Source of the DNA: Escherichia phage vB_EcoM_G4507
Sequence record: NC_054919.1
DNA length: 64,000 nucleotides
Reading direction: 5' to 3' (one strand)
Shown: piece after piece, positions 44,847 through 64,000 of the stretch
How positions within the stretch are numbered: the stretch's first letter is position 1
Layout of the letters: each line of letters opens with the position of its first letter
Translations under genes and position numbers: made by a program
The notes under the pieces: generated by a model
Seen by the model: only the letters and a program-made list of their open reading frames with translations
Databases searched by the model: none
What the model was told of the DNA's origin: nothing

Positions 44847-44854
44847 TTTTTCAC

Positions 44855-45028: not shown

Positions 45029-45030
45029 AT

Positions 45031-45506: not shown

Positions 45507-45507
45507 A

Positions 45508-45750: not shown

Positions 45751-45752
45751 TT

Positions 45753-46142: not shown

Positions 46143-47068
46143 TTCAATACCTCAATAGCATTACGTAAACCATTTGCTTTGGCGGTTAAAGCCTTAAGAA
46201 CTTTAGTATGCTCTTCAATTTGTTTTTCAACTTCAGTCAAACGGGCATTGAGATATTCACGTTCTTCACCCAGATTATCAACCTTTTCTACTTTAGGCTC
46301 TTTTACAACTGTCTTATATGTATTAGGGTTCTTCAGTTTAATTAGAATGCGTGAACTGTATAACATTGAACCATTATCTTCGGTTTCGTCATACATTTCC
46401 ACTACGTCCATAATTTTTAACATCATGCGGAGTTTATAAGACAACGAACGAATAGTTTTGTTGTGCTTATTAATTTCTTTAGCTGTCATGGTGCCGAGAT
46501 TACGTGAGTAATAATAAGGAACCTGGATATTAATTAATACTGATGAACCACCTGGCTTGTGTGTTACTTCATCAGCAATAACCCAGTCCTTAACATGAAC
46601 TGTATTTGTACGGTCATTGCCCGCGGTAAATAGTTTGCGAGCATGCTTAAAAAGCATATTCACTTGGGTATTGAATTGACAAGCAAATTTATCAGCAAAT
46701 TTAGTTTCAGGAATGGTAGATAACCAATCAGCCAAATGGGTCTTTTTAACATCGTTAACAATAGTAAATTGAACCAAATCGGTTATAGATGTCTCAGATT
46801 TAATAAAGCTCGGCTTCATAAAGTTTTTAATGTTATCGCGAGCTACAGTAGAAGATAACATACGAGAACGTTTAAACCATTCAAGCAAATTGCCTAACGA
46901 ATGAGAATAAGCGTTTTGAGTATCTTTACAGATATGATTTTCCTGGCCAACATATTGAAGGAAATCACGAAGAATATTATTGATTACTGCTCTGTGTCCG
47001 ATCTGATAATTACGATGTTTAGTAATAAGACTGTCAAAATAATCAATATAATGTTTACGAGTTTTCAT
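46139..47068 (-). CDS. hypothetical protein with C-terminal coiled coil (family member 1 of 4)
   Basis: 309-aa ORF. Confidence 0.6.
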   Translation of the reverse strand: MKTRKHYIDYFDSLITKHRNYQIGHRAVINNILRDFLQYVGQENHICKDTQNAYSHSLGNLLEWFKRSRMLSSTVARDNIKNFMKPSFIKSETSITDLVQFTIVNDVKKTHLADWLSTIPETKFADKFACQFNTQVNMLFKHARKLFTAGNDRTNTVHVKDWVIADEVTHKPGGSSVLINIQVPYYYSRNLGTMTAKEINKHNKTIRSLSYKLRMMLKIMDVVEMYDETEDNGSMLYSSRILIKLKNPNTYKTVVKEPKVEKVDNLGEEREYLNARLTEVEKQIEEHTKVLKALTAKANGLRNAIEVLK

Positions 47069-47119
47069 GTTCTTCTCACTTGTTAATGATTTATACTCCG
47101 AGCCATCCTTGGCTTTAAA

Positions 47120-48121
47120 TTACTTAATTAACTGTAAAGCTTGTTCAAGACGATCCAAGCGATTAACAGATTCTTCCCAAATCTTTTTAGCCTTCTCATA
47201 TTCTTTCTGCGCTTTATTAGAAATTTCTAGAACTTCTTTATAAGCTTTTTCTAGTGCAACAACTTCTGGACGAATTTCTACCGGTTCAAGTGAATCGTCA
47301 AGATTATCCATTAGTTCCTCAAGGGTAGTTTCTTCTTTAGGAGTATTCACAATTTCTTCGCATTTTTGTTGGTAAATTTCTTTATCAGTTAGTGAATAAG
47401 CACATTTCACTTCACGAAGACTAATTACAATTTTATATCCTTCCCAACCACCAATATTTTTGAAAGGATATGTATGAATACTTTTTACAGTTTCCATACA
47501 ATCCAAAGCCGTCTCTAATTGATGAGTTATAGTGCTAGCAATTGAGAAAAATTTATTAATATTCTTTTGGTTAGCTTCTGGTGTAAAAAATTCATAATTC
47601 ACAAAAATAGCTACTTTATTTTTATCAAGCTCATATTCTTTTACGATAATCATATCAGAAGCCAAAGGATGAATTTGACGATAATCGCCATAACATAATT
47701 TAGAAGCTGATTTTAGAATTTGTCCTTTAAAAAGTCTGAAATTACTAATCCAACGACGAGTAAAAATATTCTTAGGGTCTTCTTTGATATTAAGATGATA
47801 AGAATTAACATCACCGAACCAATTGTATCCTATTACACCTTTAGTTCGTTTAATTTCTTTCCCAAAATTACCAAGAATATCCCGATTAACTAAATATGAA
47901 AGAAGACGAGACCCTTTAAAGATTATCTTAATATCATCTTTATCTACACGGCTAGAAATTTCACGAACTTCATGAATAAATTTACTGGAAGAAACAATAC
48001 TTGCATCAATACTGCTGAGCCATTGATTGATAATAGAAAGAACAGCGTTCTGACTAGACATGGGTTTAACTTTATCATCAATAACCCCATTGAATGATTT
48101 GATATATTCGTTACGAGTCAT
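47120..48121 (-). CDS. hypothetical protein with C-terminal coiled coil (member 2)
   Basis: Start moved to MTRNEYIKSF (GAGGAG RBS); track start overlaps promoter. Confidence 0.6.
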   Translation of the reverse strand: MTRNEYIKSFNGVIDDKVKPMSSQNAVLSIINQWLSSIDASIVSSSKFIHEVREISSRVDKDDIKIIFKGSRLLSYLVNRDILGNFGKEIKRTKGVIGYNWFGDVNSYHLNIKEDPKNIFTRRWISNFRLFKGQILKSASKLCYGDYRQIHPLASDMIIVKEYELDKNKVAIFVNYEFFTPEANQKNINKFFSIASTITHQLETALDCMETVKSIHTYPFKNIGGWEGYKIVISLREVKCAYSLTDKEIYQQKCEEIVNTPKEETTLEELMDNLDDSLEPVEIRPEVVALEKAYKEVLEISNKAQKEYEKAKKIWEESVNRLDRLEQALQLIK

Positions 48122-48149
48122 ATTAATCTCCTCAGTAGAAAGTAAGAAC

Positions 48150-48179
48150 ATTATACCACATCCTTGTGGCAAAGTAAAC
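48150..48179 (-). promoter_or_regulatory. early-type promoter (GTTTAC -35, TGgTATAAT -10)
   Basis: Near-identical to promoter at 2418..2447. Confidence 0.55.
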
Positions 48180-49198
48180 TAGTTCAGTGCATTTAATGCA
48201 TTGTTCAGTTTAGAACGTTGCTTTGTCAGATTTTGAACCCTTGACTGAGCTTGTTCTAACACCTTTTCAGCTTCTAGCACTTCATTGGTCGCTTTAACGA
48301 GTTCAGCATCTACTGCCTTAAGAGACTTCTCAATCGCGTCAGCGTGCCATTTTTCTACAGGTTTAAAATTTGAATTTTCAGTAGGAAGAAAACTCACTTT
48401 ATTAAGTTTACATGCATCATTATTACCTGAACTATACATCCAAAATTTAGGATCGTTTGATAAGTAATTGGATAAATTTAAGTTATCTTGTACTTCTTGC
48501 TTTTTCTCTTGCGTGACTTCGTCCTTTCTCAAAAAATCATATTTAAATGAAACGATCATATCAAGTTCATATGATGTTGTATCTAACTTAAATCGTTCAA
48601 AACGAGGTAAAATCTTAGATTGAACAGCAGCAACAACATCCATATACTTAAATGCTTCTATCAGCTGTGATTTAAGGCATTCACAAATTGAAAGAGAATT
48701 TTTAGTATTAGGCTTAAAGCTAATTCGTGCAGTTCTATTATTTTCTTTTAACGGTCTTACTTCCATCTGAAGAGTATAACCATCAAATTTCAGGTTCTTT
48801 AAGTTAATGTCAGAACCTTTTAATCGACTAGCCGTCGACAAAATTTGCTTTAATTGTTTACGGAATAGAGCAATAAATCTCCATTCAATACGATAATGAT
48901 TTGGATTGAAAAATCCAGATGATAAATCGACCTTACTTTGACCAACGCCTTGAACAAATAGAGGATTTTTATAATCAATAGTTTTACAGAAATCGGTGAG
49001 CTGCTCACGAGCAGTCATTTGTGTAATATACCCTGCTTCATTAAAATTACGCACCCATTCACTGCTATTCATATATTTAAAGTGAATATCACGATTAACT
49101 TTATCAGGGTCTAAATTATTTTGGCACAAAAATGTCATAACATCACGAGTATAGCTGGCATTACGAACCATATCTTCAATTTGAGAACGAGTTTTCAT
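48179..49198 (-). CDS. hypothetical protein with C-terminal coiled coil (member 3)
   Basis: 339-aa ORF. Confidence 0.6.
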   Translation of the reverse strand: MKTRSQIEDMVRNASYTRDVMTFLCQNNLDPDKVNRDIHFKYMNSSEWVRNFNEAGYITQMTAREQLTDFCKTIDYKNPLFVQGVGQSKVDLSSGFFNPNHYRIEWRFIALFRKQLKQILSTASRLKGSDINLKNLKFDGYTLQMEVRPLKENNRTARISFKPNTKNSLSICECLKSQLIEAFKYMDVVAAVQSKILPRFERFKLDTTSYELDMIVSFKYDFLRKDEVTQEKKQEVQDNLNLSNYLSNDPKFWMYSSGNNDACKLNKVSFLPTENSNFKPVEKWHADAIEKSLKAVDAELVKATNEVLEAEKVLEQAQSRVQNLTKQRSKLNNALNALN

Positions 49199-49206
49199 GG
49201 TGTTCC

Positions 49207-50094
49207 TTAAGATTTAAGTAAATCAACAATTTTAATTAATTTTTCACGTTCAGATTTAGCTTTACTACTCAGTCCAGATAGTCTGAAAATTTCATCGTCA
49301 TATTGTTGAATAGAAATATTCAGCTCTTCAATCTGTTTATTAAAATAATCAATTTGTTCAGAATGTTTTTCGTTACTACGAACTGGTACAGGGTTTGTAG
49401 GCAATTTAGTTGAACTGGATTCATCCGGGCGATAAATTAAAATACAACTTGAACCAATCGGGCATTTTGCACCAGATGAATATTCTAATGTTCCGGCTTC
49501 TTTTAAAACTTCAAAAGCTAAACAGAGATGATGCCCCATATTAACATAATCTGTAGAGCGAGCTCTGACGTAATAATCATCGCCGCGAATACTAAATTTA
49601 AAGCATTTAAGGTCTTCTGTGTTATTGGTCTTAAAAATCATTTGTTTATCTAGACCTTTAGCTAATCGAGCGCCTAATGCTAATAATCGTCGTTGATTTT
49701 CCCACAAATCTGCGATCATTTGGTCAAATGATAATTTCGGCATTAGTCGACCATAAAGGTCATATCCTTTATTATAATTACGAAGGATTTCACTCGCGTT
49801 AATACGAGACAATGCTCCAATTTTATTAAGGGCTTTCATAATGCGATTAGATAAACCCATTCCAGACCCGTTTGTTCGCTGCAAATGTTTTTCTAATCCA
49901 AATCCAATATCAACTTTAAACTTATCTAAAATTTCTGCATGAACATCTCTGTCAATAACATTCAAATCCAAAGTTGGGTTAAATCTATGAAAAAATTTAT
50001 CTGGCTCTCCACGACGAAGTACAGTCCATTCATTCATTTTTTTATTAACTAAAGATTTAATTACTGTATTGACATTATTAATTACTACTGACAT
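49207..50094 (-). CDS. hypothetical protein with C-terminal coiled coil (member 4)
   Basis: Start at MSVVINNVNT (GAGGA RBS); track start overlaps upstream gene. Confidence 0.6.
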   Translation of the reverse strand: MSVVINNVNTVIKSLVNKKMNEWTVLRRGEPDKFFHRFNPTLDLNVIDRDVHAEILDKFKVDIGFGLEKHLQRTNGSGMGLSNRIMKALNKIGALSRINASEILRNYNKGYDLYGRLMPKLSFDQMIADLWENQRRLLALGARLAKGLDKQMIFKTNNTEDLKCFKFSIRGDDYYVRARSTDYVNMGHHLCLAFEVLKEAGTLEYSSGAKCPIGSSCILIYRPDESSSTKLPTNPVPVRSNEKHSEQIDYFNKQIEELNISIQQYDDEIFRLSGLSSKAKSEREKLIKIVDLLKS

Positions 50095-50101
50095 ATTTTC
50101 C

Positions 50102-50509
50102 TCACTCAATTTCAATTTTACTAAATACACAGAATATGATGGAAAAGACTATATAAGCACCGCATATAGATTGAACTAATACCATTCCAAAGAACCAAAC
50201 GATATTATCAAACAATGTCTGTTTTACGTCGAAAGGACGTAAACTTACAGTAATATTATCACCTTTTTCTATTGAAGAATACATCTCTGGGGAAATATAT
50301 TCACTAAATCTATAACCGTCTTTGAGTTCATATACAGCAATAAACGATAAACTAGACCCCTTTCCTTGGGTTCCTGTGATAGTATTAACTACAGTAACAT
50401 CATAATCTTTATAGTGCATATAATCATTAATAGCATAATAACTATATGCAACTACTATACATAAACAACATATCAATAAATTCAATCTTTTAATTATCAA
50501 CTGTTTCAT
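50102..50509 (-). CDS. membrane protein
   Basis: 135 aa; N- and C-terminal hydrophobic segments. Confidence 0.55.
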   Translation of the reverse strand: MKQLIIKRLNLLICCLCIVVAYSYYAINDYMHYKDYDVTVVNTITGTQGKGSSLSFIAVYELKDGYRFSEYISPEMYSSIEKGDNITVSLRPFDVKQTLFDNIVWFFGMVLVQSICGAYIVFSIIFCVFSKIEIE

Positions 50510-50564
50510 AATAATCTCAATTAAAAGGGCTTAGAACCATTATACCATCCTTGGTATAAAGCGG

Positions 50565-51092
50565 TTATGCGAGTACCGTCTTTAACCGTTCTTCAAACTT
50601 CCGAAGAGTATTCTGGCGTTCAGCTCTTTGCTTTTTGTAAGTTTCAATACGCTCTGAAATGAGAGTGTATCGTTCATTTACTGATTCTTTCATAAAATCA
50701 GGAATTTCACGAGAAGCTTTAATCTCGTCAAATTTATCAATAACAGCTTGCTCTTCAGCAATTAAGTTATCATACATCAAAATATCTTTCTTGATGAACT
50801 CAATATCTTCTTGAGTTACACGAGATAATTTAGATGCTTTATCCTTTTTGTACTGTTCGTTAGTATCACGAGACCAGTGTAATGTACGATTTTTATTCGT
50901 ATTTTTGTAAATTTCTACAATACCAATCTCATCAATAATAACGATCCAATTCCAACGGGATTTGTAAATTTGTCCTCCATCAACTGTGATTTCACCTCCG
51001 ATTGAGATGTCATTAAAGAACTTGCTTTGTGCTTCAGATTTAAATTTACCATCGTTGTAATTTACCAAGTTGAAAATATCTTTAGCGTTCAT
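50565..51092 (-). CDS. hypothetical protein
   Basis: Start at MNAKDIFNLV with GGAGG RBS; track ORF extends into promoter. Confidence 0.55.
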   Translation of the reverse strand: MNAKDIFNLVNYNDGKFKSEAQSKFFNDISIGGEITVDGGQIYKSRWNWIVIIDEIGIVEIYKNTNKNRTLHWSRDTNEQYKKDKASKLSRVTQEDIEFIKKDILMYDNLIAEEQAVIDKFDEIKASREIPDFMKESVNERYTLISERIETYKKQRAERQNTLRKFEERLKTVLA

Positions 51093-51119
51093 TTTCTGTT
51101 CCTCCGTAGTTGATATGGT

Positions 51120-51149
51120 AATAGTACCACAGAGGAACAGTCTTGTAAA
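51120..51149 (-). promoter_or_regulatory. early-type promoter (GTTTAC -35, TACTAT -10)
   Basis: Minus-strand motif upstream of 50565..51092. Confidence 0.55.
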
Positions 51150-51152
51150 CAA

Positions 51153-51467
51153 CTAAAAGAAACTTCTTTCACAATTTTTTCCACTGAACCACGCGCTCAC
51201 TGCTTTCTTAGTCTCAGGAGCAGTGTTATCCATAAACCATTCAAAGGCAGCCTTTTTATGATTCTGGAGGGCTTCTCGGGCTTTAATCTGCTCACGGTCT
51301 ATTAACACTAACATATGAGCCTTTCTTGTCACCATGGGCTTCTTATGATTTTTTGAATATTCCCAATCATTTGTCCATCGCATCGTTGTTGCGAATTGAA
51401 GTACAGCTTCTTTAATTTTAGTTTCGTAAATTTCACGAGCCTTTGAGTATAACATTACTACCTCCAT
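51153..51467 (-). CDS. hypothetical protein
   Basis: 104-aa ORF. Confidence 0.55.
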   Translation of the reverse strand: MEVVMLYSKAREIYETKIKEAVLQFATTMRWTNDWEYSKNHKKPMVTRKAHMLVLIDREQIKAREALQNHKKAAFEWFMDNTAPETKKAVSAWFSGKNCERSFF

Positions 51468-51556
51468 TTACCAGTTTAATTCTAGTCATCTTTTTGATGG
51501 CAGTCCATATAATCTATTTCTGAACTGCCTTTTTATCTTAGAAGGCCTCTTATGAA

Positions 51557-52525
51557 TTATTTCAGAAGAGTAACCTCAGCGATTTCTTCCCAACCGTTTT
51601 TGTCGGTCATAATAAAGTCAGCAAGATAAAGAGCAGTACGCAGTGAAACATTGCGTAAACGATTAACATTGACTTTCATCCATGATAATGCTTTATAAGT
51701 TTCTTCATCAGAAAGACCGCGCTTTTGCATCATGTCAGTTGAAAGAATAACATCTTCAACCCTGACCATAATTTCTTCATTAGTGTGAACACCCAAATCC
51801 AAATAAACTGAGCGGGACACTAATGCTTGTAAATGTGGAGCAAGTTTAGTACCACGGTCTAATTCGCGGTCAATGTCAACGTTTGTGATAAAAACAATCG
51901 TTCCTTTAAATTCAAACTCACGCTCAATGCCTTTTTCTTCTAAGTAAGAAGATGCAGTGCTCCAGCAGACTTTACGGGTCTCTCCAGTGTCCAGAGCAGC
52001 TTTCAGAAGATTAAGAATGTCCATATCAGAGAAAACATCCACATCATCAATCAAAAGGACAGAATTCTCTTCACGATTATTCCAAAGCTGCTCATAAAGA
52101 CCAATACCAGAGATTTTACCATTAATGCTTTTATATTCAATGTATCCAATATCATTTGCTTTATTTAAAGCTTTATCTAAAGAATACGTTTTACCAATAC
52201 CCGCCGCACCAGAGATAATTAATGAACGAATGTTTCCGTTAATAATACCATTCGTCATCATTCCCATAACATTAAATCTTTTATTAATGCGGGTTTTCAT
52301 ATCTTCATATGATTCTTTAACTTCTTCAACTTTTACACCATCATATGAAATGTCTGATTTGTAAACCCAAACACCGCGACGTTTACCGTCAATTTCAACA
52401 AAAACTTTACCATCTCCTTGTGCATCTACCGGAGCATTATCTGGGAACCATTCACCTAAGAGCTCAAAAGTTCCAGAGATTTCTTTACCGAAGTAGATAC
52501 CCTTATTGATAGTTACAGTTTTCAT
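51557..52525 (-). CDS. P-loop AAA-type ATPase
   Basis: 322 aa from MKTVTINKG; Walker A GAAGIGKT, Walker B VLLIDDVD; leader shared with two other genes. Confidence 0.65.
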   Translation of the reverse strand: MKTVTINKGIYFGKEISGTFELLGEWFPDNAPVDAQGDGKVFVEIDGKRRGVWVYKSDISYDGVKVEEVKESYEDMKTRINKRFNVMGMMTNGIINGNIRSLIISGAAGIGKTYSLDKALNKANDIGYIEYKSINGKISGIGLYEQLWNNREENSVLLIDDVDVFSDMDILNLLKAALDTGETRKVCWSTASSYLEEKGIEREFEFKGTIVFITNVDIDRELDRGTKLAPHLQALVSRSVYLDLGVHTNEEIMVRVEDVILSTDMMQKRGLSDEETYKALSWMKVNVNRLRNVSLRTALYLADFIMTDKNGWEEIAEVTLLK

Positions 52526-52559
52526 TTTATTCTCCAAATCCGTATCAGTTGATAGTTGT

Positions 52560-52589
52560 ATAGTACCATAAAGCTTTATGCTTGTAAAC
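52560..52589 (-). promoter_or_regulatory. early-type promoter (GTTTAC -35, TACTAT -10)
   Basis: Upstream of AAA ATPase gene. Confidence 0.55.
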
Positions 52590-52605
52590 TGTTTTGTGAA
52601 AAAAT

Positions 52606-52628
52606 TTTTTGAAATAAAAAGGGAGCCC
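52606..52628 (-). terminator. intrinsic terminator
   Basis: Hairpin GGGAGCC-cgaa-GGCTCCC followed by UUUUU. Confidence 0.65.
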
Positions 52629-52640
52629 GAAGGCTCCCTA

Positions 52641-53654
52641 TCATTTATAATAACTTCGGTGGTTTTCAAGATAAACCCTCTCAAGGAAGTCATCCCAGAA
52701 ACCCATGTCTACTTTTTGCTGCATACCGTTCTTAGAAGCTTCAGTAGATGCTGCTTCTACTTGATCGACCACATCTTCCAAAAACTCTTGAACTATTTTA
52801 AATGGATGTTTACCCAACTTCACGTCGAGAATAAATGGAGCATCTTGAAGTGGATAAATCAAGTCACCAGTTTTGTAAATTTCCAATAGTTGAAGTCCAC
52901 CACGACAAGCATGACTCAGAGCTTTCCAGTCAATGCCTTCATTGGCTTCGGCCTTACGAGCACGTTCACCATATTCAGCATCTAATTTGTTCAGTGACTG
53001 CTTAAGCTCAATAAGAGAAAGCGTTGTCTGATATTTACGACCCAACACAGTGTAGAACGTTTGAGGACCTGTTTTCTCGTGGTTATGGAATACCCATTCA
53101 CAGAATTCGTTCTCTGGAAGACGATGCTTAATATCTTCAACTTTAGTACGACGATGCTTAATGGAACCGTCTTCTTGGTAATCAACCCACTGATCGGGGA
53201 TTTGATTAACGACTTTCAATACATCGCGTAATGCAGCCAAACGAGAACCTTTAACACCATATTTAGAGGCTTGTTTACGAACATATCCTAAATAAGATTT
53301 CATGTTCGTCGTATAAAAACGAGAACGGTTGTCTTGAATAAACTTCCACACATCAGGCAAATCAGATTTAACCACTAGTTCAGGTGGAGTGTGAAGCATA
53401 TCCAATGCTACAGTTTCACCATCTGCTGCTAATTTAAAGAAATACTTAAGACTATACAATTCATGGTCAATATCATCTTTAGTGTTTTTAGATGATGTGT
53501 TGTTGGTATTTTTACTCATATGCTCTTTAACATTTCCGATAAGAATATCACGAGCAGGAGGAACAAAAATTTCTTTAAAATCTACATCAGATTCTGGAGT
53601 AGAAGTTCCATAAAGATGACTACCAAAATAGCTTTTCATTACTGTTTTCATCAT
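52641..53654 (-). CDS. predicted nucleotidyltransferase (Pol-beta superfamily-like)
   Basis: 337 aa; N-terminal GSHLYGTSTPESDVDF (GS...DxD). Confidence 0.6.
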   Translation of the reverse strand: MMKTVMKSYFGSHLYGTSTPESDVDFKEIFVPPARDILIGNVKEHMSKNTNNTSSKNTKDDIDHELYSLKYFFKLAADGETVALDMLHTPPELVVKSDLPDVWKFIQDNRSRFYTTNMKSYLGYVRKQASKYGVKGSRLAALRDVLKVVNQIPDQWVDYQEDGSIKHRRTKVEDIKHRLPENEFCEWVFHNHEKTGPQTFYTVLGRKYQTTLSLIELKQSLNKLDAEYGERARKAEANEGIDWKALSHACRGGLQLLEIYKTGDLIYPLQDAPFILDVKLGKHPFKIVQEFLEDVVDQVEAASTEASKNGMQQKVDMGFWDDFLERVYLENHRSYYK

Positions 53655-54112
53655 TCAGCCTTATATTCAATAACAGGACATACTTTAGCTTTACGAGCTT
53701 TTAAAAATTCAACGATAATCGATTTCTTGGATTGAATAGGAGTTAAACCTTTATACGCCCTATCAATATTTTCTACGTGTAAAGCATAATCCTTTTTCCA
53801 TTTATAATCTTTATATTTTTCACGCAAATGTGCAGGAATAACAAATGAACTGATAATAAGTAAAACAACCAAAAGCGCAAGTATAAATGCCGATGGAAGA
53901 AGAGTCCATAAACTGCCAAAAATAAACCAACGCTGTAGGCTTTCTGCACAAATAATTGTTAGTCCTACGAGTATAGCACATCCAAAAATAGAAACGAAAA
54001 ATGTAGGAATAACAATAGACCAAAAATACGCGCATAGTGTCTTAGGTCGTTGCCATTCATCGTTAAACAATTTGAATAATTTATAGTGCCAAGAGTTTTC
54101 ATTAATAATCAT
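53651..54112 (-). CDS. integral membrane protein
   Basis: 153 aa with about three hydrophobic helices. Confidence 0.6.
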   Translation of the reverse strand: MIINENSWHYKLFKLFNDEWQRPKTLCAYFWSIVIPTFFVSIFGCAILVGLTIICAESLQRWFIFGSLWTLLPSAFILALLVVLLIISSFVIPAHLREKYKDYKWKKDYALHVENIDRAYKGLTPIQSKKSIIVEFLKARKAKVCPVIEYKAE

Positions 54113-54114
54113 AA

Positions 54115-54636
54115 TTATCCTTTCATTGAAGGCGTAACGGTTGTTAAATACTTAATCATAGCTTCAGCTTCTGATTTTGATAATGAAATTTCTCCATTGT
54201 TTTGACGAATAGAAATAAAATCCGGATGACGGTCACCACCAGCTTTTAAAACGCACATATAAGTATCAACTTCGCCTTCAATATTTGAAATGATTGAAGC
54301 AGTTCCACATGAATGTGGTTTTTGATAAATCAATACAGCTTTTCTTCCACCGTTTGACTGTTCATAGGCTTTTAATACATCAAGCAAATCAGTTCTTTTA
54401 TCAATAGCTAAAATGTTATTTTCATCTTCAATGTTAAATCCTTCGGATACTTCATAAAGTGTTACCCATAAATCACCGATGTCAATAACAGCATTTACTT
54501 TTCCACGACTTTCAAGAGTATGACAAATTTTCTTGATTTCGTCATAACTCATTTTAATAATATCATCTCCTTGACTAAGGAAGATGTCATTTTTAAATTC
54601 AACACGAATTAAACCGCTTCCACTTGAAATAAACAT
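54115..54636 (-). CDS. hypothetical protein, paralog of 54643..55197
   Basis: 173 aa; C-terminus EAEAMIKYLTTVTPSM resembles neighbour. Confidence 0.6.
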   Translation of the reverse strand: MFISSGSGLIRVEFKNDIFLSQGDDIIKMSYDEIKKICHTLESRGKVNAVIDIGDLWVTLYEVSEGFNIEDENNILAIDKRTDLLDVLKAYEQSNGGRKAVLIYQKPHSCGTASIISNIEGEVDTYMCVLKAGGDRHPDFISIRQNNGEISLSKSEAEAMIKYLTTVTPSMKG

Positions 54637-54642
54637 ATTTCC

Positions 54643-55197
54643 TCACTTTGAAATCATAGTTGGAATAACAGAATCAAGATAAGTCTTTAGTGCAATAGCT
54701 TCGTCTTTGGTAAATGTGACAATATGTGCTCGAGAATCATCAATTTGGCGAACAAGTACGACATCGCCATCTTCATAAGAAGTCTTGACATCCAAAGTCG
54801 TAGTATAATTTGCAGCTACTGGATTAATAATGCTAGCACCGCGATCTTTAGCCCATTGAAGTTTAGCCTTTTCGGGTGTTTCGATTGTTTCAGATTCCAA
54901 GAATTCTTTCACCTTGGTAACGAATGTTGCCCAATTGTTGATAGAAAGACACATAAATTCAGTTTCAATATTACCGCCGTAAAGGCCACGATAAAAACGA
55001 ACTTGGAGGTCGCCTGTAATATTAGTTACACCGGTAACTCCTGAGGGAGCATAAGATAAAATCGCAGCCAGTTCCATAGGAAGAATAGTAATACTATCGT
55101 CTTCCTGCGTCAGAACGTATACATTATCACGTTTTTCGATAACCAGGTCACCTAACAAATCAGTTGTTTCAATTACAGCTTTCATATTATTTACCAA
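54643..55197 (-). CDS. hypothetical protein, paralog of 54115..54636
   Basis: 184 aa; C-terminus DEAIALKTYLDSVIPTM. Confidence 0.6.
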   Translation of the reverse strand: MVNNMKAVIETTDLLGDLVIEKRDNVYVLTQEDDSITILPMELAAILSYAPSGVTGVTNITGDLQVRFYRGLYGGNIETEFMCLSINNWATFVTKVKEFLESETIETPEKAKLQWAKDRGASIINPVAANYTTTLDVKTSYEDGDVVLVRQIDDSRAHIVTFTKDEAIALKTYLDSVIPTMISK

Positions 55198-55372
55198 TTA
55201 AAGTTTCAATATAAGAATCAAGATTTACTTTAGCTTCTTCCATAAGAGTTTTGTATTTAATCTTGTTAGCATGTCCGGAGAAAGCTGATTCATCAATAAT
55301 TGTTGATGTATGAACAGCTCTACTATACGTCTCAATTAATTCTCTTAATTTAAAAGCCTGCTCACTTGTCAT
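55187..55372 (-). CDS. hypothetical protein
   Basis: 61-aa ORF with AAGGAG RBS. Confidence 0.5.
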   Translation of the reverse strand: MTSEQAFKLRELIETYSRAVHTSTIIDESAFSGHANKIKYKTLMEEAKVNLDSYIETLIGK

Positions 55373-55530
55373 TACATACTCCTTTGAATAATATCAATAA
55401 TGTTGTTCACCAAATTATACGTAAACATTGGGTAATTATATTGAATCATCACATACACAACAAACAAAACTTTCATTCTCTTCTCCTTGGCAGTTGACAA
55501 GATTACTATACCATAACCTTGCCAACTTGT

Positions 55531-55710
55531 AAACCATTAAATGACGTTTTCGATAAAATTCTGAAGCTTTGTATGAGCATCAACCATGATTTTCATTTCT
55601 TCCTTTGCGAAAGCTGTGCCTCTTTCACGAGAAGAACATTCATAGTCAGAAACTGCATTAGCATATTCTTCAATTAGCTTCATTAAAAACATCTGCTTTT
55701 CAGTTTTCAT
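55531..55710 (-). CDS. small hypothetical protein
   Basis: 59-aa ORF found by hand; AGGTGG RBS. Confidence 0.35.
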
Positions 55711-55894
55711 TATTCCACCTAATCATTTCAAGATATTGAACTAACTTAGCTTTGGATTTATCCAAATCCTTTTTAGCTGTTTCTATACCGTCGTATGAAT
55801 ATCCTTCACAATGCTCAACTGCTAATTGATATGAATCTATTTCAACATCACGTGCTAATTTAATGATTTTTTCAAACTGTTCGTGTGTTAACAT
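55700..55894 (-). CDS. hypothetical protein
   Basis: 64-aa ORF. Confidence 0.5.
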   Translation of the reverse strand: MLTHEQFEKIIKLARDVEIDSYQLAVEHCEGYSYDGIETAKKDLDKSKAKLVQYLEMIRWNNEN

Positions 55895-55896
55895 AA

Positions 55897-56136
55897 TTAA
55901 ACTCTCATATTATGATCGATAATTTCATCAAGAAACATATCTAACGCTTCTATAGCATTATCCACTTTAGTTTCAAAGTCTTTAATGCCTTTATTCGAAA
56001 TACCCGATGAATACCAAGCAAAGTCAATCAGCTCTTCATCTGCTTTGCGAATTGAAGCCACTAATTCCTTGATTTTATCTGCTTGCTCTACGCTAATCAT
56101 TATTCCACCACATATGACAGAGAGAATATTGCACAC
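55897..56136 (-). CDS. hypothetical protein
   Basis: 79-aa ORF. Confidence 0.5.
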
Positions 56137-56333
56137 GCCATGTGAGTTGCAACTTCATCACACATATTATAACGTTTCTTAAGAAGTTCTACAAGTTCTT
56201 CACTAGTAACTTCATCCATGTCGACGAAAAAATCACCATTAATGATGACGTAGATATTTCCTTCTTGATTAAGTGCTTCAATTTTCATGATGTTCTCCTC
56301 TTTATCCGATGGTTGTATAGTATCACAGCTCAA
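56100..56333 (-). CDS. hypothetical protein
   Basis: 77-aa ORF with promoter upstream. Confidence 0.5.
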
Positions 56334-56346
56334 ACGGAAAGTAAAC
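56317..56346 (-). promoter_or_regulatory. early-type promoter (GTTTAC -35, TACTAT -10)
   Basis: Minus-strand motif. Confidence 0.55.
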
Positions 56347-56356
56347 CGGTAAAATG

Positions 56357-56378
56357 AAAAAAGTCTCCCGAAGGAGAC
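56357..56378 (-). terminator. intrinsic terminator
   Basis: Hairpin GTCTCC-cgaa-GGAGAC followed by UUUUUU. Confidence 0.65.
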
Positions 56379-56383
56379 TAATG

Positions 56384-56770
56384 TTATTCGAGGGAAAGAA
56401 GATACTTACTCTGGTAAAACATTCCAGTAATATCATCTATCGTGCTTTGAATGGCTGGAGGCATTTCTTTATAAATGCTGTTAGATTGGTCTAGTATGCG
56501 ATCAATCATTTTAATTGTGTCGGTAGGAAGTTTACTGGCATCTGGAATTGAAGGCGTGTATTTTCTACCAGAATACCCCAAATATTGCTCACCAAATTTA
56601 TCAATCAAATCTGGCAATTCGGAGAAAATAAAATCGTATGCTTTGTGTCTAGCATAACTTTTAGTTTCAAAATGCGCAGAATGAAAATAAGCTTGTGCAG
56701 CCATTAATAAACCTAAGTATTCATCTGCCTTTGAAGGTTTTCCACTTTGTGAAAAGTCGCTGAATTTCAT
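56384..56770 (-). CDS. hypothetical protein
   Basis: 128-aa ORF. Confidence 0.55.
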
Positions 56771-57060
56771 TCAGTCTCCAATTTAATGTTCATAATTCTA
56801 GTGTATGATTGTGCCATCTCCGCGCCTCGTTCTATACATTCGAAATCAGAAGAGCACGGGTCATTTTTATAGGTCGTTCTCATAAAACTATAGAACTGTT
56901 CAGATGATTCTACGCTTTTATTTTCAAAAAGCATATAAACATGTCTAATACCAGATTCCATAAATTTATCAAAATGAGGATCGACATTCGCTTCAATTGG
57001 TGGAGATAAAGCAAATGACAATCCTAGCATGGCAAATAGTGCCGTTGCTTTTAAGGCCAT
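56767..57060 (-). CDS. rI: lysis inhibition regulator (antiholin) rI
   Basis: 97 aa with signal anchor; MALKATALFAMLGLSF...DPHFDKFMESGIRHVYMLFENKSVE matches T4 RI. Confidence 0.9.
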   Translation of the reverse strand: MALKATALFAMLGLSFALSPPIEANVDPHFDKFMESGIRHVYMLFENKSVESSEQFYSFMRTTYKNDPCSSDFECIERGAEMAQSYTRIMNIKLETE

Positions 57061-57072
57061 AAAGGCCTCCTA

Positions 57073-57285
57073 TCATTTTTGTCCTGTATTTACTTTATGC
57101 CGATGCACGGCCTTAACTTTATCAAGGTATTTTTCAAAATTTCGCAATCTAGTATAGTCTGCCGGAGATTGGTTGAGTGATACTTCTCGACGCAAAGCTG
57201 AAATGATATTTCCAACTTCCCTACGAATTTCATCTAATTGAAGCACAGTAAGATTGCGAAGTTGCTTTTCAGTTAATTGTAGCAT
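57073..57285 (-). CDS. hypothetical protein
   Basis: 70-aa ORF. Confidence 0.5.
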
Positions 57286-57327
57286 ATATACCCCTTTAGT
57301 TAGATAAACCTATTTATAACTTTTGCA

Positions 57328-57909
57328 CTAACCGAGCTTTTTAGTTAATTCGTTCCAGTGTTTTCTACACAAAGAAACATAAATTTCATCACCAATACAG
57401 ATTTGATTACCTTCTTTAACTGGTGTTCCATCTTCCATTAATCGAGCTGTCATAATCGCTTTTTTGCCGCAATGACAAACTGCCTTTAGTTCAATAAGTT
57501 TATCTGCAATCGCTAAAAGTTCTTTAGAACCTTCAAACAATTTTCCAGCGAAATCAGTCCTTAACCCATAAGCCATAACAGGAACATTATATGTATCAAC
57601 AATTCGACTCAATTGATGCACTTGTTCAGTTTTTAAAAACTGGGCTTCATCTACAAATACGCAATGAATATCTTTTTGTGCTTCAGCCCATTTATAGAAC
57701 TCGAAAATATCCATATCATCTGTAATAATATTCGCTTCCTGTTTAATTCCAATGCGAGAAACAACTTCACAGACAGAATCACGAGTATCAATAGCAGGCT
57801 TAAGAACTAATACACTCATTCCACGTTCTTTATAATTATGTGCAGCAGTCAAAAGAGAAGCAGATTTTCCAGCATTCATTGCTGCATAAGTAAAAATTAA
57901 ACTCGCCAT
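57328..57909 (-). CDS. tk: thymidine kinase
   Basis: 193 aa; P-loop AAMNAGKS; zinc ribbon CHCGKK...CRKH. Confidence 0.93.
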   Translation of the reverse strand: MASLIFTYAAMNAGKSASLLTAAHNYKERGMSVLVLKPAIDTRDSVCEVVSRIGIKQEANIITDDMDIFEFYKWAEAQKDIHCVFVDEAQFLKTEQVHQLSRIVDTYNVPVMAYGLRTDFAGKLFEGSKELLAIADKLIELKAVCHCGKKAIMTARLMEDGTPVKEGNQICIGDEIYVSLCRKHWNELTKKLG

Positions 57910-57910
57910 C

Positions 57911-58099
57911 TTAGTCCTTAGTTAAATTTTCTAAATATGTTTCTAAATCATTTTCAGCTTTATCGATAGATTTTACTAATTCGTAATATGTTTCGGCATC
58001 TCCATATTCAGAAGATATTTCAAAAGACAAATCCTTTTCTAAACTAATAATTTCACCAACTAAAAATAATATTTCGTTCTTTTGTTCGCGAGTAATCAT
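57911..58099 (-). CDS. hypothetical protein
   Basis: 62-aa ORF. Confidence 0.5.
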   Translation of the reverse strand: MITREQKNEILFLVGEIISLEKDLSFEISSEYGDAETYYELVKSIDKAENDLETYLENLTKD

Positions 58100-58281
58100 A
58101 AGGAATTTATATAATCAATGAGTTCTTGTTCTTTATTATCAAATTCTTTGGAAAGTTCTTCATATTCATTTGCGCTAAAAGGACCGCATTCATTACAAAC
58201 TTTTTCCAATTCACTATTTTTATCCATAATTTCGTGGATAAGAGAAAAGAGTTTGTCTTTTTGTTCTTTGCTTAGGCTCAT
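58096..58281 (-). CDS. hypothetical protein
   Basis: 61-aa ORF. Confidence 0.5.
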   Translation of the reverse strand: MSLSKEQKDKLFSLIHEIMDKNSELEKVCNECGPFSANEYEELSKEFDNKEQELIDYINSL

Positions 58282-58447
58282 ATATTAATTTCCAGAAGTT
58301 TTAAAATAATTCGCTTTTGCTTAAATATTTCCACAGTTAAATGATCAGTATCTTTTTGACCAATTCCAATGGCAAAACCTTTATTAACAGCGAGTTCAAT
58401 TAAATTATCAAGTTCACGTAACACTTCATATTGTAACTCAGAACTAT

Positions 58448-58675
58448 TCATTTCGGTTTACCTTCTTTAACGAAATCTGGATAAGGATAAAATCCCGAAT
58501 AAAATCCTTCACCTTTATGATTGATGCATCCTTTATTAGAACAATAGCACCAATAATCGAAATCACAAGCCATTTCATCGTTACATAAAGCAAAAACAAC
58601 CGGCCACTTACACTTTTCACAGTGGGCATTTTTAAGAATACTAGTTTGGCTCATAACCATGTAACCTTTAAGCAA
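58448..58675 (-). CDS. cysteine-rich small protein
   Basis: 75 aa, 8 Cys; overlapping 58444..58629 in other frame rejected. Confidence 0.5.
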   Translation of the reverse strand: MLKGYMVMSQTSILKNAHCEKCKWPVVFALCNDEMACDFDYWCYCSNKGCINHKGEGFYSGFYPYPDFVKEGKPK

Positions 58676-58863
58676 TATTCTTCTACATGTTGTTTACGAC
58701 CTTTCTTATCAATAAAGGTATATTCAACGAATGTTCCAATGTAGTCTTTATCTACATCATGTGGACTATTAATTGGGCATTTAGTACGGCAAATGCGTTC
58801 CCATTGACGAATAATTACTGCTTTGTTTTTAGGATCAAACGGATGTGGGTAATGTACTTTCAT
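58651..58863 (-). CDS. hypothetical protein
   Basis: 70-aa ORF. Confidence 0.5.
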   Translation of the reverse strand: MKVHYPHPFDPKNKAVIIRQWERICRTKCPINSPHDVDKDYIGTFVEYTFIDKKGRKQHVEEYCLKVTWL

Positions 58864-59314
58864 AATCCACCACTATTAAATCAATATCAGGAGTAAACAT
58901 GTCGATTAATTTAGAAACCTTATCCCAATCGCCGCCAGCAATACCACAACCTATACGTGGAATGTAAATTACTGGTTTAAACAAAAGGGTTTCTGCCTGT
59001 AGATTTAATTCTATCATGCAGTTTACTAAAGCACCATAATCAAGATTAGGACCTGGTTCGTATTGCGTATACAAGTTATAACATATGCCAAACCCATTAG
59101 GTTTATGTTTAAAAACAATAGACATATCGCCTAATTTATCACGAGAACCGTACTCAGTAGTGGTTTTATCTATTTCTAAAATTTTGGGATAGGCTCTTGC
59201 TAATTGACCAGCTACACCACTGCCCATTGTATGAAAACAGTTACACCCGTGCGCAATAATATTACCTTCAAGAAAGAGGGCGACAATATCGCCCTTGATA
59301 TATTTTACAATCAT
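58835..59314 (-). CDS. macro-domain protein (predicted ADP-ribose binding/processing)
   Basis: 159 aa; GDI...IAHGCNCFHTMGSGVAGQ and IPRIGCGIAGGDWD resemble macro-domain motifs. Confidence 0.6.
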   Translation of the reverse strand: MIVKYIKGDIVALFLEGNIIAHGCNCFHTMGSGVAGQLARAYPKILEIDKTTTEYGSRDKLGDMSIVFKHKPNGFGICYNLYTQYEPGPNLDYGALVNCMIELNLQAETLLFKPVIYIPRIGCGIAGGDWDKVSKLIDMFTPDIDLIVVDYESTLPTSV

Positions 59315-59658
59315 CTAGTACTCAATCCTCGATTATAAGAATCTACTAAACGGTCAACCATTGAATGACAAGCGGCTTTATCTTTTTCCTCCGCAACTGA
59401 ACATTCTAGGGTATTCCACTTTTTAGCATATCGTTTTAATAATGTATCGTTTTTGTATCTGCTTGATTTATCTCTTTCTCCGTCTTTATATGCATATATT
59501 AATTTCTGCGCAAATTCAGCTTGGCATGCTTTATTTTTCCCGCAATAATCTGCCGCAGTGCGGTTCACATACTCCCTAATTTCAGTATATGATGTATCTG
59601 CTGACGCATAAGCAGAAAATGAAATTAATCCTATACATAAAACCAAAATTTTAGTCAT
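59311..59658 (-). CDS. secreted hypothetical protein
   Basis: 115 aa with signal peptide MTKILVLCIGLISFSAYASA. Confidence 0.6.
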   Translation of the reverse strand: MTKILVLCIGLISFSAYASADTSYTEIREYVNRTAADYCGKNKACQAEFAQKLIYAYKDGERDKSSRYKNDTLLKRYAKKWNTLECSVAEEKDKAACHSMVDRLVDSYNRGLSTR

Positions 59659-60196
59659 TTACTATTTCCAAAAGTTTATTATTTTTAAGGTAATTAGCCT
59701 TTTCTAGGACTTCAGAAGCATATTTAGAACCTGCTTTAACATTCCATCCCGAATTATAAGAGGATATTGCTTTTCTTATATCGCCCTTATGTATATTTAA
59801 CCAATAAGAAAGTTCAATGTACGCCCAGGAAGCTGAATTGGATCGTTTATTCAACATTCTTTTTATTTCAGCATCGGTCATATTATAACCAAGTTCCTTA
59901 ACTCTCGCTCGCATAGTAGGCAAATAATTTTGGAACATTCCGTAAGCATGATGTTTTGGTTTAGATTTTAAATTAACTCCGCCAGAGCTTTCTTGCCATA
60001 AAATAGCAGCCATTATATGACCTAATCCGCTCTTGTGGATATTTTTGTGTGTTTTATATTTTCCATCCTTAGAAAATTGTTCCCCGAATTGATACGCGTA
60101 ACGCATGTTATCGAGTTGGACATTACTGAAAGTATGCTCGGAGCTATGTGCCATCATTGAAATGGCCAATAGACCAGCGAGTAGTGCTTTTCTCAT
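59651..60196 (-). CDS. secreted lytic-transglycosylase-like protein
   Basis: 181 aa; signal peptide; SLT-like motifs LWQESSGG and YGMFQ. Confidence 0.6.
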   Translation of the reverse strand: MRKALLAGLLAISMMAHSSEHTFSNVQLDNMRYAYQFGEQFSKDGKYKTHKNIHKSGLGHIMAAILWQESSGGVNLKSKPKHHAYGMFQNYLPTMRARVKELGYNMTDAEIKRMLNKRSNSASWAYIELSYWLNIHKGDIRKAISSYNSGWNVKAGSKYASEVLEKANYLKNNKLLEIVND

Positions 60197-60203
60197 GTTT
60201 ACC

Positions 60204-60665
60204 TCATTGAGTTTTAATTACTGCTTTAGAAGCCTTTCCTGGTAAACGACGACTGTTGATAATTGCCATCCTACATTGAAGTGACGGGTCTTTGAACTTC
60301 TCATTAGGTTTACAAACTGTAAATCCAAGCCAAAGATTTCCATCTGTAATTTCTAAACGTCCAGGACGATATTCAACTCCATCAATAAAATCCTCATCAA
60401 TGTCAGGACGCGGAGGCATACTCAGGAATTCATTAACTTCTAAAACATGGTCTTTTATTTTATGGAATAATTCAAAAACATATGTCTCATCAATCTCCCG
60501 TTGAATTGCACGATCAAGAAGATGTTGAGAATATTTTAGATGAAACGATGAGACCCCTGCTGCTTTTGATGCCTCACGAATCTCATTGTTAATTTGACGA
60601 AACTCCGACTCAAAGTGACGACGAAGCTTATTTCGACGGATAAAAACTTCTGTATTGATAGTCAT
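60204..60665 (-). CDS. regB: endoribonuclease RegB
   Basis: 153 aa; size and position match T4 RegB. Confidence 0.85.
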   Translation of the reverse strand: MTINTEVFIRRNKLRRHFESEFRQINNEIREASKAAGVSSFHLKYSQHLLDRAIQREIDETYVFELFHKIKDHVLEVNEFLSMPPRPDIDEDFIDGVEYRPGRLEITDGNLWLGFTVCKPNEKFKDPSLQCRMAIINSRRLPGKASKAVIKTQ

Positions 60666-60692
60666 GTTATTCTCCTCTTAACTGATAGAAAA

Positions 60693-60722
60693 ATTATACC
60701 ACAGTCAAGAGGAAAAGTAAAC
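60693..60722 (-). promoter_or_regulatory. early-type promoter upstream of regB (GTTTAC -35, TATAAT -10)
   Basis: Minus-strand motif. Confidence 0.55.
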
Positions 60723-60796
60723 AGTTATTCTTTAAATCTAATCAATTTATTCATAGACTTTGAAACTTCTGCACGAACCTCATGTAAGTTTTTAAG

Positions 60797-61045
60797 CTAT
60801 TCAAGACGCTGCGTATAGTAAGCAATTTCATCTTCTTCGAGACAGTCCTGTGAATCTTCTTTAAGATAACGTGCATAGTCCTGAAAAGCTTTACGGACTA
60901 CTTCCTGGAAGTCATCAAGACTTTGAATTTTCTTAGGAGCGGCAGATACACGACGAGGTGCAGTATAATACTCATAACCAAACCCTGCACTTAATTGAGC
61001 CATTAGTATTTTTCCTCTGGTTGGAACACTGCACGACAAGCCCAC
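60797..61045 (-). CDS. hypothetical protein (vs.3-like)
   Basis: 82-aa ORF. Confidence 0.5.
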
Positions 61046-61305
61046 ATACTGGCTTCTTTGAGTTTCGTTTTAGCAATAGTTAACTGATCGAGGCTTTCAG
61101 CATAATTCTTCGCGAGTTCATCATCTTCACAGCTATCAAATGCTTCCCAAAATTCATCGTATAAAGCATCAAAGATAAGTCCTAAACGAACTTCAGCGTC
61201 TTTGATAGCATTCACTTTACTGATTTTCTCTTCGGTATGCGGCTTATAACCCTTAATATCTTCAATCATATTTGACTTCCTCACCAGTACATAAATCATA
61301 TTCAA
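61003..61305 (-). CDS. hypothetical helical protein (vs.4-like); start uncertain
   Basis: 100-aa track ORF overlapping upstream gene. Confidence 0.5.
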
Positions 61306-61483
61306 CTAAACGAATAGGTTCATGAATGCCATATCCCTGAACAGAAATTTCTGTCGTGGGATAAATTCCATCAATATCACCCATATTCCAGGCTTCATTA
61401 AATTGCTGTTCGCCTGAATTACTAAACCACTCGGCGAAAGCATTTAGCACATCTTCAGAACCTTCAATAATTATCTTTGCCAT
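61262..61483 (-). CDS. hypothetical protein (vs.5-like)
   Basis: 73-aa ORF. Confidence 0.5.
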   Translation of the reverse strand: MAKIIIEGSEDVLNAFAEWFSNSGEQQFNEAWNMGDIDGIYPTTEISVQGYGIHEPIRLVEYDLCTGEEVKYD

Positions 61484-61845
61484 TACAAACTCTCGGTGAA
61501 GGTACGAGCGATAACGTCGCGCTGCTGTTCCGGAGTCAGAGAGTTAAAGCGAACTGCATAACCGGATACACGGATGGTCAGCTGCGGATATTTTTCCGGA
61601 TGCTTAACTGCATCTTCCAGAGTTTCACGACGCAGAACGTTAACGTTCAGGTGTTGACCACCTTCAATTTTAACTGTAGGTTGTGTTTCAATTTCAATTT
61701 CACGGGCATGCAAACCGTAGAAAATTTCCGGGTCTACAAAAGAGTCCTCTTTAAAGGTTTTAGAGACAATAATTCGTGCTTGAATACCATCTTCAAAATA
61801 AATAGTACCTTTATGTGTGCCTTCAAGAATTTGATATGCTTTCAT
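61483..61845 (-). CDS. autonomous glycyl-radical cofactor (GrcA/YfiD-like; T4 Y06I-like)
   Basis: 120 aa; C-terminal ~60 aa including [31 protein letters not shown] match E. coli GrcA as recalled; 3' half markedly GC-richer than flanks. Confidence 0.8.
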
Positions 61846-61852
61846 ATAAACC

Positions 61853-62182
61853 TCAATTAGAAAATAAATTTATCCAAGATTGTTCTTTAATTAAAAACGG
61901 CTCAGAATCATATGCCATTAAACTTTGCGTAATTAATCCTTTAAAAGGTCCATCAATAAATTCCATGGTAAAATATGGAATTTTATTCATTAGCCGTGCA
62001 TTAGGAGCAGTACATAAAACTCTGCATCCTTTGAATACACCTTTTTGTAATTTGTATTGCTTGGGATAAAATTCGCTCAAAATGTTATTATTTGCTAAAA
62101 TTTCAAAATGATTCACCAATTTATTTTTAATAGTTTTTGGCGAAAAATAAAGATATTCGAAAAGTTGCGTATCTGTCATCAT
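61853..62182 (-). CDS. hypothetical protein
   Basis: Start at MMTDTQ giving ATGA overlap with upstream gene. Confidence 0.5.
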
Positions 62183-62721
62183 TGCATTCCAATTACGAAA
62201 AACTGCGGACGAGTAATACCACCAATACAGCATTTACTATTGCAGCAATATTGCACAGTTTCAATATGAATATCGTAAATTTTATCCATATCAGGAGATT
62301 TAACAGGCTCATCGATTATATACAAAATTCGAGAAAGCGATAAACCTCTGAACTTGCTACCTCTATTACCAACAAAACTACGGACAGAATCAGTAAATAA
62401 ACGGAATCGAATATCATCGCTAGAATAACGAGAAAATTCTTTTTTAATGCGGCCCACAGAAATTTTAGCGTAAGCTGAAGTATTAGAAAGAACAATAACT
62501 GTTCCACCATCATACAACCAATTAGCGGCAAAATTAGTTGCTGCAGTTGATTTACCGGATTGTCTGCCACCATCTAAACGAAGTGTACAATATTCTTTAA
62601 ATAAATACGACGAATCAGGTACATAAAATCCACTATTACAAATTTCTTCTACTCTAGCGTCAGAATGGTGTGTAAAAGCATTCATCAGGGATAGATAAGG
62701 ACCAGTTAAAAATGTTCTCAT
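62179..62721 (-). CDS. small P-loop NTPase
   Basis: ~180 aa from MRTFLTGPY; Walker A GGRQSGKST, Walker B ILYIIDEP; Cys-rich C-terminus. Confidence 0.55.
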   Translation of the reverse strand: MRTFLTGPYLSLMNAFTHHSDARVEEICNSGFYVPDSSYLFKEYCTLRLDGGRQSGKSTAATNFAANWLYDGGTVIVLSNTSAYAKISVGRIKKEFSRYSSDDIRFRLFTDSVRSFVGNRGSKFRGLSLSRILYIIDEPVKSPDMDKIYDIHIETVQYCCNSKCCIGGITRPQFFVIGMQ

Positions 62722-62865
62722 GTTATTTCTCTTAAGGTTTTTGGGCCATTCCGTGGCGCATGAATTGTCCATTTCTGTATTTACCCATTACCGCACTTGG
62801 GCTCGACCTTATTACAGGTTGGCGGGAATCCCTCATAGAATCATGAGGTCCAGGTTGTTCCCATA

Positions 62866-63340
62866 TTATTTGAACGATTTAACGTACTGAATAGAACCTT
62901 TACTATTTACAAAGGCAATTTTACCATTTTTATTATACATGGTAGCAGTACGCTGATAGCCATAAGTTTGCTTACCAGATTGATAACCAACTAATGCAAA
63001 ATTATCTTCACCCATTTTATTCTGTTTAGCGCGAATGCGTTCATGACCATGTGCCATAAGAACCTTAGCATCACCAGTTACAATGGATCGACGAGTTTTT
63101 TCATCTTCAACTGTATTAACAAAGTCGTCAAATGAATCAAATTTAGCATGAGATTTATTATACAGTTTTCCATCTACTGCATAATTATATCCCTGTACAT
63201 CCATCTCAACTTCTGTACCATCATCCAATACAGCAGTAATTTTCTGTCCTTTTTTTAAATTTCAAAAGATCAGTAAAAGATTCAGCAATAATTTGAGAAT
63301 TAATAGCTGCTTCAGTGATAAATTCTTGATATGTTTTCAT
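62866..63340 (-). pseudogene. internal-protein (ip)-like gene interrupted by +1 frameshift at an A7 tract
   Basis: ATG at 63340 encodes MKTYQEFITEAAINSQIIAESFTDLLKFKK then hits a stop after the A7 run (63250..63256); remaining 120 codons continue in +1 frame; A6 would give one ~158-aa ORF. Confidence 0.55.
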
Positions 63341-63394
63341 GTGTTTCCTTTAAATATTTTAATTAGTAATTTGTCTCTTCAAGCAACTGTGAAT

Positions 63395-63424
63395 ATACTA
63401 TCACAATTCTAGGAGAAAGTAAAC
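63395..63424 (-). promoter_or_regulatory. early-type promoter upstream of ip-like gene (GTTTAC -35, TAGTAT -10)
   Basis: Minus-strand motif. Confidence 0.5.
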
Positions 63425-63428
63425 AACT

Positions 63429-63959
<531 letters not shown>

Positions 63960-64000
63960 TTAAAAGAGGCTGTTCATTATTCGGTAAAGTGAAGGACCCA

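Follow-up and report, generated by a model that had tools for sequence, protein, structure and literature searches.

The ip4 locus and its two reading frames

The window, i.e. the whole stretch of 64,000 nucleotides analysed here, belongs to a Tequatrovirus (T4-like phage). The locus is defined by its upstream neighbour, the T4-type lysozyme gene e (63429..63923, minus strand), which was recognised by its translation and by the annotations of relatives. Directly downstream of e, in the slot that ipIII takes in T4 (reference gene order e-ipIII-ipII-denV), lies ip4, split between two frames. Its 5' fragment (63221..63340, minus strand) is an ORF of 39 codons, MKTYQEFITEAAINSQIIAESFTDLLKFKKRTENYCCIG, that starts with the ATG at 63340 and runs into a TGA stop ending at 63221. 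Only codons 1-30 of this ORF encode genuine Ip4 sequence; the nine that follow, codons 31-39 (RTENYCCIG), are read in the wrong frame. The frame is lost at a run of exactly seven A's (63250..63256, minus strand; T7 on the plus strand), the site of a +1 insertion where relatives have A6. The run covers codons Lys29-Lys30 and the first base of the following codon, and the stop comes 9 codons beyond it. Another A6 tract of the gene lies at 63096-63101 (codons Glu80-Lys81-Thr82). Three T7 runs, the ip4 tract among them, and no A7 run are present on the plus strand of the 64 kb.

The 3' body of the gene (62866..63249, minus strand; codons 31-157 plus TAA) is out of frame with the leader. From the tract onwards this second frame has no stop before the TAA at 62866-62868, which gives 127 codons if counted from the GGA at 63249 and 120 codons if counted from the TTG at 63228; the TTG at 63228 and the ATG at 63204 are candidate internal starts. 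The peptide ITAVLDDGTEVEMDVQGYNYAVDGK is encoded in the downstream frame, and SFTDLLK is a peptide of the leader-side ORF, not of the downstream frame. Removal of one A yields a single continuous protein of 157 aa. The initial annotation had described the same arrangement: the ORF from 63340 beginning with MKTYQEFITE, the A7 run with a stop a few codons later and the remainder open for 120 codons in the other frame were all confirmed, on the minus strand, the last count holding from the TTG. It was also right that six A's would give one protein, but the length is 157 aa rather than ~158.

The repaired protein matches the Pfam family DUF7412 (PF24183) with an E-value of 2.5e-95 (317 bits, cut-off 27) over positions 1-157 of the 158 model positions, and phrog_3155 'internal virion protein' with an E-value of 2.3e-101. 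A full-length match to the one and a match to the other mean that the two frames are not a chance ORF pattern. Orthologues in RB14, RB51, PP01, Shfl2, PST and T2 are annotated as Ip4/IpIV internal head protein, and the repaired protein fits their family model end to end, with 99% identity to the main cluster (114 member sequences). These similarities support the identification of the split gene as ip4 (IpIV), which encodes a T-even internal head protein that bears a capsid-targeting leader. They also bear out, together with the leader and the comparison with Escherichia phage ECP52 given below, the earlier proposal of an internal-protein gene split by a frameshift at A7. The orthologues are intact, with 157 aa and an A6 tract, whereas the window has A7 and a premature stop.

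Downstream of e, T-even phages carry alternative internal-head-protein cassettes, of which ip4 is one; the other locus for IP cassettes is that of ipI. The promoter/RBS region between e and ip4 (63341..63428, minus strand) is common to T4 ipIII and forms the 5' anchor of the cassette: the ~90 bp 5' of the window's ip4 are almost identical to the region 5' of T4 ipIII, and a predicted early promoter is annotated there in fPS-2. The leader MKTYQEFITE (63311..63340, minus strand) ends, by comparison with T4, in an I-x-E site for the prohead protease (gp21). With its following residue it reads MKTYQEFITE/A, against MKTYQEFIAE/A in T4 IPII/IPIII, so that 9/10 leader residues are identical and the likeness to the T4 capsid-targeting sequence that had been noted before is confirmed. 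The family alignment places a second conserved protease site, IIAE/S, with its end at codon 20 (63281-63283, minus strand). Among the 12 aligned family sequences E10 and E20 are invariant, each preceded by I/L/M/V-x, so that two prohead-protease sites are predicted. Equally invariant in this alignment is K30-G31-Q32-K33, where the tract lies.

Ip4 has much in common with T4 IPII/IPIII, i.e. the locus downstream of e, the upstream regulatory region, the leader with its I-x-E site and the character of small basic proteins (pI about 9.1-9.5). The predicted mature Ip4 (residues 21-157) is basic as well, with a pI of 9.3 and a mass of 15.5 kDa. Past the leader, however, T4 IPII/IPIII have no sequence similarity to Ip4, and the PHROG matches of the repaired protein to other IP families are confined to the N-terminus. 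A further difference is that leader and body are uncoupled in the window's ip4. Structure prediction gave an alpha/beta model of Ip4 (pLDDT 74, pTM 0.67); its structural neighbours were uninformative, no solved homologue was found, and literature searches found no functional study of Ip4/IpIV.

Rarity of the A7 allele

Over 801 bp around ip4 the extra A is the sole difference between the window and its closest relative, ECP52. The five closest relatives all have A6 and all annotate a CDS of 474 nt, so that in the comparison of tract lengths suggested by the initial annotation the window alone carries A7. The same was seen on a larger scale. When 81 nt with the tract in the middle served as the query, 303 phage records were hit, and the exact A7 version occurred in none. 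A tblastn search with the 39-aa product matched 310 records, and in 308 of them the match ends at residue 30; in these 308 relatives leader and body stand in one frame, a feature absent from the window, where codon 40 is a stop. The out-of-frame tail was retained in only two of the 310 records, vB_EcoM_P8 and vB_EcoM_BMB16. One more record, the third in which at least 80% of the 39-aa product is covered, is either a further A7 genome or a low-identity alignment.

Intact 157-aa forms of Ip4 are recorded on hundreds of contigs. An exact look-up of the window's 39-aa and 112-aa fragments retrieved no record. The two ip4 genes found in IMG/VR are both A6, and the exact 33-nt patterns of A7 and of A6 had no match in that collection. 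A shorter, 21-nt A7 pattern had no match in IMG/VR, 8 in JGI metagenomes and 4 in GTDB genomes. By blastn none of these lies in ip4, i.e. the JGI and GTDB matches are chance occurrences outside the gene.

Recurrence at the Lys-Lys-Gly codons

In P8 and BMB16 the A7 sits on another ip4 allele, which has more than 20 substitutions, almost all of them silent when the downstream frame is read. The genomic context differs as well: denV separates e from ip4 there. The nearest intact relatives of this allele are 99.2% identical to it. Both records annotate the split ip4 as two CDSs, and both keep an intact, conserved downstream frame; the initial annotation had considered relatives with the same A7 and an unconserved downstream part, and that is not what these phages have. 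P8 and BMB16 differ from each other by 5 SNPs in 33.6 kb and one indel, so that they are distinct genomes with a common lesion. This argues that the lesion is real and heritable there, and that a broken ip4 is transmissible and viable.

A third allele, ~81% identical, is found in the Logan contig SRR23924977_48202 from the read archive, where ip4 is split as in the window, into 39 aa and 112 aa. Here the lesion is an extra G (A5G4), which gives AAA AAG GGG TCA where AAA AAG GGT CAA is needed; no close intact relative of this allele was found. In other words, there are three independent +1 insertions within 4 nt at the conserved Lys-Lys-Gly codons, on three alleles. The independent lesions at the same three codons in other phages are the only mildly unusual aspect of what is otherwise a known gene family with a conventional +1 homopolymer lesion, i.e. 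a young pseudogene or a sequencing slip.

The same Logan contig carries, at 1198-1365 between e and ip4, a 55-aa gene whose product starts with MMTFKQFLNE. Judged by its sequence, this start resembles a capsid-targeting leader with an L-x-E site and may mark an undescribed, very small internal protein.

Mutation or sequencing error

We consider it probable that A7 is a recent loss-of-function allele, private to this genome, which arose at a hot spot of mutation, and not a designed feature. The extra A in the A6 tract (Lys29-Lys30) would probably have arisen by replication slippage, the classic frameshift mechanism of T4. Runs of A are known hot spots of such Streisinger-type slippage in T4, classically in rII and in the lysozyme gene e. 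The ip4 lesion resembles these in that a T-even genome gained one base within six consecutive A's, and in its independent recurrence at the tract. Unlike them, it is carried by a host-range accessory gene as a natural or stock allele and is no laboratory mutant obtained by selection.

The main competitor, to which we give a clearly lower but still substantial probability, is a homopolymer sequencing or assembly error. The phage would then truly be A6 with an intact ip4, and the extra A would be a base-calling artefact. A +1 change in a homopolymer of 6-7 nt is the commonest type of error on several platforms, and the window's ip4 allele is otherwise identical to that of ECP52. The downstream frame has not decayed any further, which is compatible with an error and with a very recent mutation alike. 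Occasional split genes do occur in other deposited T4-like genomes: in vB-Eco-KMB39 (17031-17448) the glycyl-radical cofactor gene grcA/vs.6 is annotated as two overlapping CDSs, another apparent frameshift, which shows that such splits are sporadic in this group.

The frequency of such lesions in the window speaks against an error. When every ECP52 ORF of at least 50 aa was compared with the 64 kb by tblastn, ip4 was the only annotated ECP52 gene split between frames, which implies a low indel error rate of the assembly. Window and ECP52 share 99.47% identity over the region 44503-64000, and there the remaining differences in homopolymer length (near 44851, 50043 and 52610) all fall in intergenic gaps of ECP52. 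Against five relatives, the private changes in these 19.5 kb are ten substitutions and two single-base homopolymer insertions, at 52605 and, in ip4, at 63250. The insertion at 52605, the only other private indel of the region, consists of one T added to an intergenic A6T6 tract (GAAAAAATTTTTTGA). As a second private +1 change of a homopolymer, it could point to an error mode biased towards such runs. Both insertions, however, are found where selection would tolerate them, i.e. between genes and in an accessory gene, whereas most of the ~64 runs of at least six A or T in the window are expected to lie inside genes, given the densely coding phage genome.

The private substitutions are all transitions (6 synonymous, 3 missense, 1 nonsense), a spectrum that looks like evolution under purifying selection and not like random error. 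The nonsense change is a CAG>TAG amber at 60799 in vs.3 (60725-61003, minus strand). It truncates the 92-aa Vs.3 at residue 69, vs.3 is otherwise the same as in ECP52, and an exact match was found in none of 377 phage records. A second private CAG>TAG amber lies at 13782 in a modA.4-like gene of 54 aa (13726-13890, minus strand), which starts with GTG instead of ATG; here none of 495 records matches exactly. The two ambers are substitutions in other small accessory genes, so they are not homopolymer artefacts, and as independent knockouts in the same genome they indicate that the lineage tolerates the loss of such genes. It follows from the fact that both replace Gln codons that a supE (Gln-inserting) host would restore the wild-type proteins, and the pair may hint at propagation on a suppressor strain.

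The substitution spectrum, the two private ambers and the inheritance of the same lesion in P8/BMB16 lead us to favour a real replication-slippage mutation over a homopolymer sequencing error, and we infer that the lesion is biological rather than a misread base. Of the three alternatives listed in the initial annotation, recent inactivation is the more probable and sequencing error the next. The third, a slippage-controlled gene, is disfavoured for the reasons given below.

Possible leaky or programmed expression of the split gene

A gene controlled by slippage would still make some full-length Ip4 from the A7 allele, and the tract would act as a reversible switch between an ON and a low state. 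We regard this as improbable. It could work by two routes, a +1 slip of tRNA-Lys on AAA_AAA_A with a rare AGG codon in the A site, or slippage of RNA polymerase on the A7 run. The insertion does create AAA AAA AGG, in which AGG is rare here (1.39 per 1000 codons), and a +1 slip would restore precisely the sequence ...KFKK-GQK.... In E. coli, rare AGG/AGA codons are known to favour frameshifting, and a 'savior indel' with low-level compensatory frameshifting is known from the herpesvirus TK (Atkins et al. 2016, PMC5009743). The G7 run of the HSV thymidine kinase gene is similar to the ip4 tract in that a homopolymer indel inactivates a dispensable viral gene, with a slight full-length leak possible in principle; the difference is that the window's ip4 would need a +1 shift at AAA_AAA_AGG. 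The downstream frames are intact after all three independent insertions, which would also agree with a leak.

Several points stand against it. The out-of-frame architecture is not conserved among the orthologues, as 0/303 records have an exact A7 and 2/310 have the tail. The A7 run is below the lengths at which slippage is known, since selection against A/T runs and the functional cases of transcriptional slippage centre on 9 nt, sometimes 8 (Baranov et al. 2005, PMC1088944). The A5G4 of the third allele is not slippery. A hairpin is found 12 nt downstream of the tract (126-nt fold, z = -3.3), but the same sequence is present in the in-frame relatives, so it probably did not evolve for frameshifting. 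The two datable events are recent, with at least 99.2% identity to intact alleles, and the intact downstream frames therefore need no selection as an explanation. T4-type IPs are needed in hundreds of copies per head, a number that a shift of a few percent would not supply.

In a related reading, mutation at the Lys-Lys-Gly tract would repeatedly switch an injected phage protein ON and OFF, which would make the tract a contingency locus. The +1 insertions would be kept where the loss of Ip4 helps, e.g. where a host defence senses Ip4. Partial rescue of A7 could come from +1 slippage at AAA_AAA_AGG or from a return to A6. We hold this, too, to be a poor prospect. A programmed shift at the tract is unlikely, because the architecture is not conserved, A7 is shorter than slippage lengths and rescue needs a +1 shift; no slippery element of a proven type was found at the 7-nt run. 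A -1 frameshift at the A-rich heptamer was rejected, as it enters a third frame full of stops. An Rfam scan of 61800-64000 at a permissive threshold gave chance-level matches only (E of at least 0.16).

Predicted consequences for the phage

The IPs of T4 are brought to the prohead core by their leader, which the prohead protease then cuts off; the mature IPs are injected together with the DNA (Silas et al. 2025; Srikant et al. 2022). Each of T4 Ip1, Ip2 and Ip3 is an inhibitor of a different GmrSD type IV restriction enzyme (Silas et al. 2025), and the IP genes are dispensable on laboratory hosts and act as host-range factors (Silas et al. 2025; Srikant et al. 2022). By analogy, the N-terminal leader of an intact 157-aa Ip4 would direct the protein into the prohead, the prohead protease would remove the leader after E10 and E20, and the basic mature protein of ~15.5 kDa would be packaged and then injected with the DNA. 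Packaging, cleavage and an anti-restriction function are inferred for Ip4 in this way. The T4 IPs have known targets among the distinct GmrSD enzymes; on this model Ip4 probably acts against a single subtype of type IV (GmrSD-like) restriction enzyme. Both GmrSD-ECOR21 and GmrSD-ECOR17 restrict T2 (Silas et al. 2025), and the T2 record carries an intact A6 ip4 according to the 81-nt tract query. A phage that has an intact ip4 and yet is restricted by these two enzymes makes them unlikely targets, and they are probably not blocked by Ip4.

If the lesion is real, translation from the A7 allele would end after 39 residues and the leader would be uncoupled from the body. Only a short leader peptide could then be packaged, and a body started from the TTG at 63228 or the ATG at 63204 would have no leader and could not be packaged. 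Such uncoupling would leave ip4 functionally null as an injected factor, and wherever a host has a defence that Ip4 counters, the window phage is expected to act like an ip4 null. It would lack the one IP that its e-proximal locus encodes and should not succeed on such hosts, which matters for the choice of therapeutic or biocontrol phages. The target of Ip4 could then readily be sought with an isogenic A6/A7 pair. If the extra A is a sequencing error, an annotation fix is all that follows. The mechanism is conventional under either outcome.

Other features of the window

Five private synonymous transitions are clustered within 610 bp (49272-49882) of a 313-codon ORF of the nrdC.x type. This cluster is probably a recombination patch from an unsampled allele rather than a set of point mutations.

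Between ip4 and the next gene there is a non-coding spacer of ~145 nt (62722-62865, minus strand) with 45% GC, against 34% for the window. It is kept in P8 despite the different upstream context there, and KMB23 annotates a 34-aa ORF inside it. The spacer was rejected as a structured RNA, since it has one local hairpin, a fold z-score of 0.19 against shuffled sequences and no Rfam match. The gene downstream of ip4 (62179-62721, minus strand) encodes a 180-aa protein with a Walker-A-like motif, GGRQSGKST, which is annotated as 'hypothetical' in the relatives.
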